A stretch of DNA of 7,461 nt from IMG/VR virus record IMGVR_UViG_2778261152_000006. The stretch is one strand, 5' to 3'. The notes beneath the pieces were generated by a model, which had not been told where the DNA came from, made no database searches, and saw nothing but the letters and a program-made list of their open reading frames with translations. The translations under genes and the position numbers were made by a program. Of the stretch, positions 2,964-7,461 are shown one piece after another. Numbering within the stretch: position 1 is the first letter of the stretch; each line of letters begins with the position of its first letter. Source of the stretch: a virus. Taxonomy: Duplodnaviria > Heunggongvirae > Uroviricota > Caudoviricetes.

Positions 2964-3185
2964 ATGATTGCACATCACTTCGGAACTGATGAAATACCAC
3001 GTCAGTGTGTGACTCCTGGCGATTATGTTCTTCATGAAGGCCGGACATATATTGCCTCGGCAAACAATATTAAAAAGCGAAAACTATATATTCGTAACCT
3101 GACCACAAAAACATGCATTACTGACCGCATGATTAAAGTCTTCCTCGGTCGTGATGGTTTACCTGTAAAGGCGGAGTCATGGTGA
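2964..3185 (+). CDS. kilR: KilR, Rac prophage cell-division (FtsZ) inhibitor, 73 aa
   Basis: [77 protein letters not shown] at 2954-2957, 6 nt before ATG 2964. The track ORF starts 12 nt earlier at ATG 2952, but that start lacks the SD spacing. Confidence 0.8.
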
Positions 3186-3355
3186 TGACTAAGAAAATAA
3201 AATGTGCTTACCACCTTTGCAAAAAAGACGTTGAAGAAAGCAAAGCTATTGAAAGAATGCTTCACTTCATGCACGGGATTTTATCAAAAGACGAACCGAG
3301 AAAATATTGCAGTGAAGCTTGTGCCGAAAAAGACCAGATGGCACATGAACTTTAA
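3185..3355 (+). CDS. ydaE: YdaE, small Cys-rich (CxxC...CxxC) protein, 56 aa
   Basis: My translation [56 protein letters not shown]. Its ATG overlaps the kilR stop (TGATG). Below the track size cutoff. Confidence 0.7.
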   Translation: MTKKIKCAYHLCKKDVEESKAIERMLHFMHGILSKDEPRKYCSEACAEKDQMAHEL

Positions 3356-3806: not shown

Positions 3807-6407
3807 ATGAGCACAAAACCACTCTTCCTGTTACGGAAAGCGAAAAAATCATCCGGTGAACCTGACGTCGTCCTGTGGGCAAGCAACGATTTTGAATCGA
3901 CCTGTGCCACTCTGGACTACCTGATCGTTAAGTCAGGTAAAAAACTGAGCAGCTATTTTAAAGCTGTTGCCACGAATTTTCCTGTCGTTAATGACCTGCC
4001 CGCTGAAGGTGAGATCGATTTTACCTGGAGTGAACGCTATCAACTCAGCAAAGACTCCATGACATGGGAACTAAAACCGGGAGCAGCACCAGACAACGCT
4101 CACTATCAAGGCAATACCAACGTCAACGGCGAAGACATGACTGAGATTGAGGAGAATATGCTACTCCCAATTTCTGGCCAGGAACTGCCCATTCGTTGGC
4201 TTGCTCAACACGGCAGCGAAAAACCGGTAACGCACGTTTCACGCGACGGACTCCAGGCATTACACATTGCTCGGGCTGAAGAACTACCGGCTGTTACTGC
4301 CCTGGCTGTTTCCCACAAAACCAGCCTGCTCGACCCGCTGGAAATTCGCGAACTCCACAAACTGGTTCGTGACACTGACAAAGTTTTCCCTAATCCTGGT
4401 AATTCAAACCTGGGACTGATAACTGCTTTTTTCGAAGCATACCTGAACGCTGACTACACCGATCGAGGACTGCTGACAAAAGAGTGGATGAAGGGTAATC
4501 GTGTTTCACACATCACTCGCACGGCTTCCGGTGCTAATGCTGGCGGCGGAAACCTCACCGATCGCGGCGAAGGTTTCGTACACGATCTGACGTCACTGGC
4601 GCGCGACGTAGCCACTGGCGTACTGGCCCGTTCAATGGATCTGGACATCTATAACCTTCATCCGGCACACGCTAAACGCATTGAGGAAATTATCGCTGAA
4701 AATAAACCGCCCTTTTCTGTTTTCCGCGACAAATTCATCACCATGCCTGGCGGGCTGGATTATTCCCGCGCCATCGTGGTTGCGTCCGTAAAAGAAGCAC
4801 CAATTGGGATCGAGGTCATCCCCGCGCACGTCACTGAATATCTGAACAAAGTACTGACTGAAACCGATCATGCCAACCCTGATCCGGAAATCGTGGATAT
4901 TGCCTGCGGTCGCTCCTCTGCCCCGATGCCGCAGCGAGTAACAGAAGAAGGAAAACAGGATGATGAAGAAAAACCGCAACCATCTGGAACAACGGCAGTT
5001 GAACAGGGAGAGGCTGAAACAATGGAACCGGACGCAACTGAACATCATCAGGACACGCAGCCGCTGGATGCTCAGTCACAGGTAAATTCTGTTGATGCGA
5101 AATATCAGGAACTGCGGGCAGAACTCCATGAAGCCCGGAAAAACATTCCATCAAAAAATCCTGTCGATGCCGATAAATTGCTTGCTGCATCACGTGGTGA
5201 ATTTGTTGACGGAATTAGCGACCCGAACGATCCGAAATGGGTAAAGGGGATCCAGACTCGCGATTGTGTGTACCAGAACCAGCCAGAAACGGAAAAAACC
5301 AGCCCAGATATGAATCAACCTGAGCCAGTAGTGCAACAGGAACCGGAAATAGCCTGCAATGCCTGCGGCCAGACTGGCGGGGATAACTGCCCTGACTGTG
5401 GTGCGGTGATGGGCGACGCAACATACCAGGAAACATTCGCTGAAGAGAGTCAGGTTGAAGCTAAGGAAAATGATCCGGAGGAAATGGAAGGCGCTGAACA
5501 TCCGCACAATGAGAATGCTGGCAGCGATCCGCATCGCGATTGCAGTGATGAAACTGGCGAAGTCGCAGATCCCGTAATCGTAGAAGACATAGAGCCAGGT
5601 ATTTATTACGGAATTTCGAATGAGAATTACCACGCGGGTCCCGGTATCAGTAAGTCTCAGCTCGATGACATTGCTGATACTCCGGCACTATATTTGTGGC
5701 GTAAAAATGCCCCCGTGGACACCACAAAGACAAAAACGCTCGATTTAGGAACTGCTTTCCACTGCCGGGTACTTGAACCGGAAGAATTCAGTAACCGCTT
5801 TATCGTAGCACCTGAATTTAACCGCCGTACAAACGCCGGAAAAGAAGAAGAGAAAGCGTTTCTGATGGAATGCGCAAGCACAGGAAAAACGGTTATCACT
5901 GCGGAAGAAGGCCGGAAAATTGAACTCATGTATCAAAGCGTTATGGCTTTGCCGCTGGGGCAATGGCTTGTTGAAAGCGCCGGACACGCTGAATCATCAA
6001 TTTACTGGGAAGATCCTGAAACAGGAATTTTGTGTCGGTGCCGTCCGGACAAAATTATCCCTGAATTTCACTGGATCATGGACGTGAAAACTACGGCGGA
6101 TATTCAACGATTCAAAACCGCTTATTACGACTACCGCTATCACGTTCAGGATGCATTCTACAGTGACGGTTATGAAGCACAGTTTGGAGTGCAGCCAACT
6201 TTCGTTTTTCTGGTTGCCAGCACAACTATTGAATGCGGACGTTATCCGGTTGAAATTTTCATGATGGGCGAAGAAGCAAAACTGGCAGGTCAACAGGAAT
6301 ATCACCGCAATCTGCGAACCCTGTCTGACTGCCTGAATACCGATGAATGGCCAGCTATTAAGACATTATCACTGCCCCGCTGGGCTAAGGAATATGCAAA
6401 TGACTAA
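3807..6407 (+). CDS. recE: Exodeoxyribonuclease VIII (RecE), 866 aa
   Basis: 866 aa [32 protein letters not shown]... ending ...[11 protein letters not shown], matching the length and sequence I recall for K-12 RecE. The C-terminal third carries the nuclease domain; the middle is acidic and low-complexity. GAGG 9 nt upstream of the ATG. Confidence 0.95.
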
Positions 6408-7086
6408 GCAACCACCAATCGCAAAAGCCGATCTGCAAAAAACCCAGGGAAACCGTGCACCAGCAGCAGTTAAAAATAGCGACGTGATTAGTTTTATTAA
6501 CCAGCCATCAATGAAAGAGCAACTGGCAGCAGCTCTTCCACGCCATATGACGGCTGAACGTATGATCCGTATCGCCACCACAGAAATTCGTAAAGTTCCG
6601 GCGTTAGGAAACTGTGACACTATGAGTTTTGTCAGTGCGATCGTACAGTGTTCACAGCTCGGACTTGAGCCAGGTAGCGCCCTCGGTCATGCATATTTAC
6701 TGCCTTTTGGTAATAAAAACGAAAAGAGCGGTAAAAAGAACGTTCAGCTAATCATTGGCTATCGCGGCATGATTGATCTGGCTCGCCGTTCTGGTCAAAT
6801 CGCCAGCCTGTCAGCCCGTGTTGTCCGTGAAGGTGACGAGTTTAGCTTCGAATTTGGCCTTGATGAAAAGTTAATACACCGCCCGGGAGAAAACGAAGAT
6901 GCCCCGGTTACCCACGTCTATGCTGTCGCAAGACTGAAAGACGGAGGTACTCAGTTTGAAGTTATGACGCGCAAACAGATTGAGCTGGTGCGCAGCCTGA
7001 GTAAAGCTGGTAATAACGGGCCGTGGGTAACTCACTGGGAAGAAATGGCAAAGAAAACGGGTGATGATGCCAACTTACTGATTTAG
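6400..7086 (+). CDS. recT: RecT recombinase, truncated by IS1: 220 native codons plus 8 IS1-encoded codons (GDDANLLI), then stop
   Basis: [32 protein letters not shown]... matches RecT up to ...WEEMAKKT. The IS1 terminal repeat then begins at 7060. Full-length RecT is 269 aa as I recall it. The ATG at 6400 overlaps the recE stop (ATGACTAA). Track ORF 6343-7086 starts at an upstream ATG that I regard as not used. Confidence 0.9.
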
Positions 7087-7114
7087 TGTATGATGGTGTT
7101 TTTGAGGTGCTCCA

Positions 7115-7390
7115 GTGGCTTCTGTTTCTATCAGCTGTCCCTCCTGTTCAGCTACTGACGGGGTGGTGCGTAACGGCAAAAGCACCGCCGGACATCAGCG
7201 CTATCTCTGCTCTCACTGCCGTAAAACATGGCAACTGCAGTTCACTTACACCGCTTCTCAACCCGGTACGCACCAGAAAATCATTGATATGGCCATGAAT
7301 GGCGTTGGATGCCGGGCAACCGCCCGCATTATGGGCGTTGGCCTCAACACGATTTTCCGCCATTTAAAAAACTCAGGCCGCAGTCGGTAA
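7115..7390 (+). CDS. insA: IS1 InsA (transposition regulator), 91 aa
   Basis: [91 protein letters not shown] is the IS1 InsA sequence. Confidence 0.95.
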
Positions 7391-7461
7391 CCTCGCGCAT
7401 ACAGCCGGGCAGTGACGTCATCGTCTGCGCGGAAATGGACGAACAGTGGGGCTATGTCGGG
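7309..7461 (+). CDS. insB: IS1 InsB (transposase frame), N-terminal 51 codons; partial at window end. Active product is the InsAB' frameshift fusion
   Basis: -1 frame relative to insA translates [51 protein letters not shown], matching the InsB N-terminus. Open to the end of the window. Confidence 0.8.
7366..7372 (+). other. IS1 A6C programmed -1 ribosomal frameshift motif (AAAAAAC) at the end of insA
   Basis: TTAAAAAAC at 7364-7372 sits in the insA/insB overlap, where the IS1 frameshift window is known to lie. Confidence 0.7.

Follow-up and report, generated by a model that had tools for sequence, protein, structure and literature searches.

The DNA analyzed here, hereafter the window, is a stretch of 7,461 nucleotides from a virus of the class Caudoviricetes (IMG/VR record IMGVR_UViG_2778261152_000006), and it contains recE, the gene for exodeoxyribonuclease VIII. 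We found that a four-cysteine (Cys4) motif in RecE is the core of a cassette of ~31 residues, RecE 514 to 544, with the consensus KVCxxCGxxGGGxCPDCG[AP]VMG[DN]ATYxE[TM]F. By sequence comparison, what is new is that this motif is the core of a portable cassette common to RecE, phage Dam methylases, and 3'-5' exonucleases. We propose, with moderate confidence, that RecE residues ~514 to 544 form a portable Zn(Cys)4 cassette that docks its carrier onto a common partner.

Translation of nucleotides 5355 to 5399 gives C517-N-A-C520-GQTGGDN-C528-P-D-C531 and so bears out the Cys4 motif that an earlier reading of the window from its letters alone (the original prediction) had placed there in RecE, with the same coordinates and residues. 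The spacing reported at the time, CxxC-X8-CxxC, was wrong, as GQTGGDN puts seven residues between C520 and C528 and the motif is CxxC-X7-CxxC; the codon of G532 (5400 to 5402) falls just past the end coordinate then given. The setting had been described correctly. The surroundings are strongly acidic, with 27 D+E versus 2 K+R in residues 501 to 600 (10 and 0 in residues 501 to 550, 17 and 2 in residues 551 to 600), and the motif lies upstream of the C-terminal nuclease domain, which was crystallized as residues 605 to 866. In 200,000 shuffles of the RecE sequence, any CxxC-x(4-20)-CxxC arrangement arose 111 times (5.6e-4). A chance cluster of Cys was rejected on this frequency and on the conservation of the four Cys, since the conservation rules chance out independently of the shuffle test. 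Two antisense open reading frames (ORFs) at 5190..5633 and 5215..5436 had no Pfam match, an Rfam scan of the window gave no match, and a search of positions 5100 to 5700 found no repeats. On the absence of Pfam, Rfam, and repeat signals, we rejected a DNA- or RNA-level feature or an antisense gene at the motif site.

All four motif Cys (C517, C520, C528, and C531) are present in 81/81 distinct lambdoid linker segments, as against 15/81 and 48/81 for two control Cys of the same linker, C487 and C579, respectively. Insertions and deletions cluster in the Q/E/P-rich stretch ahead of the cassette, and none falls within it. Both TGC and TGT are in use at all four Cys codons.

The starting point for the distribution of the cassette was a nucleotide search of complete E. 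coli genomes with recE, in which the region around the motif also matched otherwise different genes annotated "exonuclease" or "3'-5' exonuclease." Three carriers were read among these and related genes: an 823-residue Qin-type protein with an unrelated N terminus and a DnaQ-like 3'-5' exonuclease domain (PF16473) at its C terminus, an 800-residue hybrid with a RecE-like N terminus and a DnaQ-like C terminus, and a 682-residue protein of Shigella phage 75/02 that is without a nuclease domain and is encoded upstream of gam-recT-exo. These carriers share C-x-x-C-G-Q-x-x-G-x-x-C-P-D-C-G-[AP]-V-M-G-D-x-T-Y-x-E-T-F. DNA encoding the cassette was found in 4735 of 5426 complete E. coli genomes, with a median of 2 copies and a maximum of 9. 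Word-index protein searches with 146-residue and 42-residue queries returned short E. coli fragments only, and one with full-length RecE returned relatives that were all at least 76% identical (all but one at least 85%); useful sequence diversity came from an exhaustive HMMER search and from locus scans. The segment that is 100% identical to RecE over the 42-residue query in L007, a 2.9-kb contig of an "uncultured Roseburia sp." metagenome-assembled genome (CALWLV010000260.1), appears to be a binning contaminant. A RecE segment 89.6% identical to that of the window (H19) belongs to Actinobacillus phage vB_Apl-pPE4 (PP818812.1), which is recorded as infecting Actinobacillus pleuropneumoniae, an unexpected host for an E. 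coli-type Rac module.

Upstream of the cassette, a conserved block at residues 454 to 483 is common to L001, L002, L006, the RecE of Gifsy-2 (961 residues), and that of a Klebsiella phage (1012 residues). The last two retain the block (GISDPTDPKW in the Klebsiella phage protein) and have no cassette, which is present in the Gifsy-type RecE P0146. The exhaustive HMMER search, made with RecE 454 to 589, gave 57 cluster representatives. Among the informative 50%-identity representatives, meaning those with the GISDP block and enough downstream sequence, the cassette was present in 8/14 and absent from 6/14. Since about half of the divergent RecE-family lineages are without it, the cassette is, by its distribution, an accessory, shuffled module and not part of the RecE N-terminal domain proper. 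It is a presence/absence element in a flexible linker, located after the conserved block and before whichever C-terminal domain follows. The four cysteines, whose conservation across RecE homologs the original prediction had offered as a check, are thus kept wherever the segment exists but are not universal in RecE.

The cassette also occurs outside the exonucleases. We scanned one genome per species with the peptide pattern CPDCG[PA]VM only and obtained matches at the extreme C terminus of proteins of ~310 to 350 residues in Citrobacter youngae, Yokenella, Trabulsiella, Enterobacter soli, Salmonella enterica, Kosakonia, Klebsiella spallanzanii, and Hafnia. These tail carriers are D12-class Dam DNA-adenine methyltransferases (PF02086 at residues 8 to 260 or 8 to 265; TIGR00571). 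Although the first knuckle is absent from the search pattern, two more Cys were found at most 13 residues upstream in 21/21 true scan matches. Among named phages, a Dam tail is present in, for example, the P2-like Salmonella phages SI7, SW3, SW5, SEN4, and SEN5, the P2-like Enterobacter phage phiT5282H, and a number of Klebsiella phages. One viral contig shows a P2-like early region that encodes a C repressor, Cox, a stand-alone 182-residue DnaQ-like exonuclease, Dam with the tail, and the gpA nickase.

In the P2-like prophage of L111 (2416 to 7185), the gene for a 182-residue DnaQ-like exonuclease lies directly upstream of the gene for the Cys4-tailed Dam, with that for the gpA nickase next, and in lambdoid prophages the cassette is followed directly by the same DnaQ-like exonuclease domain as a fusion. 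This pattern of fusion and neighborhood hints that the cassette and the DnaQ-like exonuclease may work together. Most Dam tails (L017 to L023, L026, L027, and many of L110 to L189) continue beyond the Cys4 cassette and end in [AG][AT]FD[DG]xExF-COOH, for example AAGTFDDLEAF, AAGAFDGSEGF, or GSFDDRNIF; the Dam ORFs of L017 to L023, L026, and L027 end at ~4066 to 4132. The C-terminal tip of bacterial SSB is DFDDDIPF. By analogy, the acidic, Phe-ending Dam terminus resembles this tip and could be a second docking motif.

Among small carriers, P0160 (190 residues) and P0165 (179 residues) are ended or interrupted by the cassette. The P0165 gene lies between an RdgC-like gene and an integrase gene in a prophage that also encodes RecT and Dam. 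Adjoining it, at 5537 to 6541 of L190, is the gene for a 334-residue protein with two DnaJ-like CxxCxGxG motifs (CSRCKGHG ... CPDCGGRG), which adds a second type of Cys-rich module to this early region of the prophage. The cassette is present as well in a 335-residue protein of Aeromonas phage 13AhydR10PP and in proteins of Plesiomonas and Oceanisphaera, the one from Oceanisphaera having a replication-initiation-like N terminus. The Aeromonadales and Plesiomonas versions read C-x6/7-C-x2-C-P-D-C, a different arrangement that still holds four Cys, and one Dam subclass reads C-x-C-C-x6-CPDC. We counted 186 cassette instances in 190 sources (loci plus the window), all with four Cys: 47 in Dam proteins, 41 in DnaQ-type proteins, 62 in PD-(D/E)XK RecE proteins, 30 in other proteins with the GISDP block, and 6 in others. 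They comprise ~72 distinct 40-residue variants, two Ruminiclostridium matches (L028 and L029) having been excluded as false because they consist of tandem CPDCG repeats of the ordinary zinc-ribbon kind and do not have the tail motif.

The differences between copies point clearly to purifying selection on the cassette. When Dam-type copies were compared with exonuclease-type copies across the 24 codons that run from the first Cys to the tail Tyr, the proportion of synonymous differences (pS) was 0.77, which is near saturation, and that of nonsynonymous differences (pN) was 0.19. Calculated on the columns outside the retrieval pattern, pN/pS was 0.46 overall; the tail alone gave 0.31, and the x positions of the first knuckle gave 0.91. 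Invariant Cys, Gly, and Pro together with freely varying x positions would be the pattern expected of a structural metal knuckle. These values bear on the idea that the cassette has no function in RecE and is either a hitch-hiking remnant of lambdoid prophage recombination or a rigid spacer in a disordered linker. Such a passenger would be in keeping with the RecE-family lineages that do without the cassette, with the existence of C517F and deletion alleles, with the failure of AlphaFold2 to give a confident fold, and with the ~85% identity of the DNA flanking the cassette between different exonuclease genes of E. coli prophages, which is consistent with recent mosaic exchange. We nevertheless consider a functionless element highly unlikely: at a pS of 0.77 to 0.92 between Dam-type and exonuclease-type copies, the Cys, the Gly, the Pro-Asp, and the VMG..TY tail are kept, the cassette has been placed independently in at least five architectures and in two phage lifestyles, and the neighboring linker Cys are not conserved.

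The first knuckle has been lost in a few fragments or deletion products. In P0128, GANAGGGN (RecE 243 to 249) is joined to GGGNCPDCG and the first knuckle is missing; P0126 is a RecE(1-526)-RecT fusion with its break inside the Gly-rich loop; in P0180, the deletion of RecE residues 488 to 579 runs between two "RDC" tripeptides. These three natural rearrangements, from RecE variants in public assemblies, have breakpoints that lie in or beside the cassette, and its Gly-rich codons may be deletion-prone microhomologies.

In the docking reading that we favor, the CxxCG knuckle, a seven-residue Gly-rich turn, and the CPxCG knuckle would form a metal site, probably Zn(Cys)4 as judged, together with its fold, from the ligand pattern and its conservation, and the short conserved VMGDATYxE[TM]F segment would likely pack on this site or extend from it. 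Temperate phages of Enterobacterales and Aeromonadales would have put the cassette into flexible linkers or C termini of early-region DNA-transaction proteins, namely, RecE-type 5'-3' exonucleases, DnaQ-like 3'-5' exonucleases, nuclease-less RecE-2, Dam methyltransferases, and a few small proteins, where it would dock the carrier onto a shared partner rather than bind DNA or take part in catalysis. The cassette is always at a terminus or in a flexible linker, in the setting of the early recombination/replication region of temperate phages, and the net charge of its 29-residue core is 0 to -5 in 72/72 variants. Because the cassette is acidic and its carriers have unrelated chemistry, docking appears to be its most likely role, and its attachment to other exonucleases and to Dam methylases makes a docking piece likelier than a chance sequence. 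The partner would probably be a host protein, since lambdoid and P2-like phages share little else, or else a widely shared phage protein. The cassette is dispensable for nuclease activity, because it lies outside the crystallized domain and because the nuclease domain 564 to 866 genetically replaces full-length RecE (reviewed in PMC11611040).

A bolder version of the docking proposal can be formulated, in which the cassette would be a horizontally shuffled recruitment tag whose small, zinc-stabilized VMGDATYxEMF face delivers its carriers to one hub in the host, such as the replisome, SSB, or a complex for recombination or repair, and underlies the superiority of full-length RecE over its nuclease domain in linear-linear recombination (PMC11611040; PMC11610958). 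We hold this version only tentatively and give it a small chance of being right.

Several observations weigh against the docking reading. Metal binding in RecE is deduced from sequence, and the case for docking draws only on composition and domain context, the partner being conjectured. The second knuckle was part of the retrieval pattern, so its invariance in the locus sets follows in part from the way they were retrieved. The absence of the cassette from the Gifsy-2 RecE, a Klebsiella phage RecE, and six of the informative representatives indicates that its role is optional. Among the 90%-identity RecE clusters listed, C517F occurs in 4/120, and P0180 is a natural allele with a clean deletion of the cassette. 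The Rac prophage is cryptic and its recE normally silent; therefore, these alleles may reflect neutral decay. In a Pfam search with a 50-residue segment starting at P505 of RecE, the best similarities stayed below the gathering cutoffs, with 16.4 bits versus 27.3 for DZR (E = 0.01) and 14.7 bits versus 27 for Zn_ribbon_3 (E = 0.022). AlphaFold2, run on RecE 492 to 563 (72 residues, 16 sequences) and RecE 512 to 551 (40 residues, 21 sequences), gave a mean predicted local distance difference test score of 54.9 and 59.4, respectively, with no residue at or above 70. The better model, itself of low confidence, has isolated beta-bridges flanking the knuckles and a helix at D537 to Q549 (model residues 26 to 38); given this low confidence, we draw no conclusion on the fold. 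A Foldseek search of the 40-residue model against the PDB gave nothing below E = 2.9.

Most of the 14 Pfam matches at E ≤ 10 are to zinc-ribbon or zinc-finger families. The Cys4 arrangement "typical of a small zinc ribbon" of the original prediction is borne out as to the two CxxC-type pairs, C517/C520 and C528/C531. Because the scores stay below the gathering cutoffs, the cassette was not placed in any existing Pfam zinc-ribbon family. The broader interpretation in the original prediction is partly supported, since the four Cys are conserved and the similarities, although below threshold, are to zinc ribbons only, but the motif is not universal. For the cassette alone, Pfam, NCBIfam, and PHROGs hold no model, only whole-protein RecE or exonuclease models and the subthreshold zinc ribbons. 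Zn_ribbon_3 (PF13248) and DZR (PF12773), both of the clan Zn_Beta_Ribbon, resemble the cassette in having two CxxCG/CPxCG knuckles within ~20 to 25 residues end to end, and profile positions 2 to 26 of 26 of Zn_ribbon_3 align to RecE 514 to 535 (positions 10 to 31 of the test segment). They differ in that the RecE spacer between the knuckles is Gly-rich and, at 6 to 7 residues, too short for the usual beta-hairpin, and in that neither model has a counterpart of the tail VMG[DN]ATYxE[TM]F. Two other candidates were discarded. A DnaJ-type CxxCxGxG repeat does not fit, as C-N-A-C-G-Q-T-G in RecE has Gly at +1/+4 and not at +2/+4, and the DnaJ-type family PF00684 was absent from the Pfam matches at E ≤ 10 of the 50-residue segment. 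A clamp-binding QL[SD]LF motif, sought by eye in the conserved tail, is not matched by YQETF and is absent from the Dam tails.

The CxxCG and CPxCG knuckles are also rubredoxin signatures, so the four Cys might hold an iron center of the rubredoxin-like Fe(Cys)4 type, or act as a redox or thiol switch, instead of binding structural zinc; the NCBIfam rubrerythrin-like domain gave a weak match (E = 0.68). In rubredoxins, however, the knuckles are roughly 25 to 30 residues apart, far more than the 7-residue spacer of RecE. As there was in addition no significant match to any rubredoxin model in Pfam or NCBIfam and the carriers have no redox chemistry, we regard an iron or redox center as extremely improbable.

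C4 zinc ribbons of topoisomerase I, Fpg/Nei, RadA, and primase tether enzymes to DNA. In the same way, the cassette might be a zinc finger for DNA or single-stranded DNA that tethers its carrier to the substrate, raising the processivity or end binding of RecE and the substrate affinity of Dam and DnaQ-like enzymes. Every carrier that could be identified acts on DNA, the weak PDB profile matches include the N-terminal zinc finger of RadA (5lkm and 8rxc; E about 0.8, not significant), and linear-linear recombination works better with full-length RecE than with the nuclease domain (PMC11611040; PMC11610958). Yet the core is neutral to acidic in every variant and has no conserved basic residue, the ~100 residues around it in RecE, with their excess of D+E over K+R, are the opposite of what surrounds known DNA-binding zinc ribbons, and no significant similarity to any such finger was found in Pfam, by PDB profile search, or with Foldseek. 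We therefore consider a DNA-binding finger unlikely. Where the original prediction had left a choice between protein and DNA interactions, the charge of the core makes the protein half the more plausible and disfavors the DNA half.

The same advantage of full-length RecE, which is specific to linear-linear recombination (PMC11611040), would also be expected if the cassette were an intersubunit or intermolecular metal bridge, or an oligomerization element, that links RecE molecules on two DNA ends. The model for such a bridge would be the Rad50 zinc hook. In that hook, each of two chains contributes a CxxC pair to a single Zn site, located at the apex of the antiparallel coiled coil. The long flexible linker around the cassette could reach across molecules, and the Rad50 hook (1l8d) was among the Foldseek matches, although at E = 4.7 it was not significant. 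Against a bridge, four Cys within 15 residues suffice for an intramolecular site, no coiled coil was predicted around the cassette in the AlphaFold2 models, and the cassette also occurs on Dam and on small proteins, in which end bridging has no obvious role. RecE carries both CxxC pairs on a single chain, and the models show no coiled coil around them, which does not match a Rad50-type zinc hook; we find a metal bridge quite unlikely.

Returning to the docking reading, several known systems lie close to the cassette. The PDB profile search gave marginal matches only, to small zinc proteins and ribbons: MtrI (9qtr chain i), the 2lcq ribbon, Spt4/RpoE'', and the RadA finger. MtrI was the best of these (E = 0.0067), with CEACGRESDTKyCNDCGKVM aligned to CtaCGqtGGGkCPDCGpVm. 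MtrI is a small, stress-responsive protein that attaches to the Mtr complex of Methanosarcina (PMC12774963). Its role, binding to another protein complex, is comparable to that proposed for the cassette; it differs in that the match is short and marginal, the system is archaeal and unrelated, and the tail motif is not shared. The N-terminal finger of RadA/Sms and the C-terminal Zn ribbons of topoisomerase I are likewise accessory Cys4 modules on DNA-transaction enzymes, but they exceed the cassette in length, are basic, and make contact with DNA or with partner domains, whereas the cassette core is not basic. In SecA, the SEC-C motif is basic (K/R-rich), has CxCxSGx8C[HC] ligands, and serves in partner docking. 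As proposed for the cassette, SEC-C is a Cys-rich metal module of ~20 to 30 residues on flexible linkers of unrelated proteins and, at least in SecA, has a role in docking and not in catalysis; it has no sequence relationship to the cassette, and it is basic, in contrast to the acidic CxxC-x7-CxxC of RecE. By analogy, SEC-C may be the closest counterpart for the proposed action of the cassette, which itself we would class as a new small family among the familiar Cys4 zinc knuckles and ribbons.

Features of recE in the window, with the evidence for each
Feature	Position	Strand	Evidence or remark
recE (exodeoxyribonuclease VIII, 866 residues; host of the motif)	3807..6407	+	ORF and translation; NF007259; PF06630 plus PF12684
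N-terminal Exonuc_VIII domain, residues 2-178	3810..4340	+	PF06630 (Pfam), E = 5.6e-98
Conserved block, residues 454-483	5166..5255	+	Upstream of the cassette in lambdoid proteins; high column conservation; kept in RecE relatives without the cassette
Variable Q/E/P-rich linker, residues 484-513, including C487	5256..5345	+	Gap and conservation profile of the 81 distinct segments
Cys4 cassette, residues 514-544	5346..5438	+	Gap-free, near-invariant columns; core also in Dam, DnaQ-like, RecE-2, and small proteins
First knuckle, C517-N-A-C520-G521 (CxxCG)	5355..5369	+	81/81 lambdoid variants; outside the search pattern
Second knuckle, C528-P-D-C531-G532 (CPxCG)	5388..5402	+	Invariant in alignments A1, A2, A4, and A5; part of the search pattern
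Conserved tail, residues 534-544	5406..5438	+	pN/pS 0.31; low-confidence AlphaFold2 helix from D537
Acidic linker from cassette to nuclease, residues 545-604, including C579	5439..5618	+	Composition; no Pfam domain or solved structure over it
PD-(D/E)XK nuclease domain, residues 605-866	5619..6404	+	PDB 3H4R chain A, E = 3.2e-180; PF12684 (Pfam) at residues 615-850, E = 4.1e-28

NCBIfam NF007259 matches the window protein over residues 1 to 866 with 1829.9 bits, above the cutoff of 1269 for a RecE equivalog; the protein has both the N-terminal Exonuc_VIII domain and the C-terminal PD-(D/E)XK nuclease domain of RecE, and the gene is 100% identical to the annotated recE of E. coli CP53. The sole solved RecE structure, 3H4R, covers query residues 605 to 866, and the Cys4 motif falls outside all structural data. 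The start of recT at 6400 overlaps the recE stop, in the order recE-recT that is annotated in E. coli genomes and characterizes a Rac-type operon. The window is the early-left region of an E. coli Rac-type prophage. Its recT is broken after WEEMAKKT, near nucleotide 7059, by IS1, whose end, ggtgatgatgccaacttactgatttagtgtatgatgg, begins at about 7060 and whose InsA ORF is at 7115..7390; this Rac prophage has an intact recE and a disrupted recT (window positions 6400 to 7461). Between kilR-like and racC-like ORFs lies a 58-codon ORF (3179 to 3355, plus strand) with a C-x4-C ... C-x3-C pattern, which makes it a second candidate for a small Cys-rich, metal-binding protein in the same operon as recE; it occupies what we take to be the position of ydaE on the K-12 Rac map.

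The function of the large N-terminal part of RecE is described as unknown in reviews (PMC11611040, PMC11610958). Zheng et al. (Genome Res 2025; PMC12315714) described lambdoid Rec modules with RecE, DnaQ-like 3'-5' nucleases, and a nuclease-less "RecE-2," noted their mosaic architecture, and suspected a "shuffling of partner interaction domains." These Rec-module proteins are the same carriers in which the cassette occurs; however, the Cys4 cassette and its occurrence in Dam are not mentioned in that paper, where "zinc" appears twice, both times in one cited title. Our targeted literature searches found no paper mentioning a zinc or cysteine motif in RecE or in phage Dam tails. The cassette defines a discrete, testable element of ~31 residues inside the unexplained part of a heavily used recombineering protein, whose full-length form is the one on which direct cloning by linear-linear recombination depends, and domain databases could take it up as a family definition as it stands. 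Should the carriers have a partner in common, other enzymes could be recruited by grafting the tag onto them, and if deletion of the cassette changes nothing, a long acidic stretch of RecE could be trimmed from recombineering constructs with more confidence.

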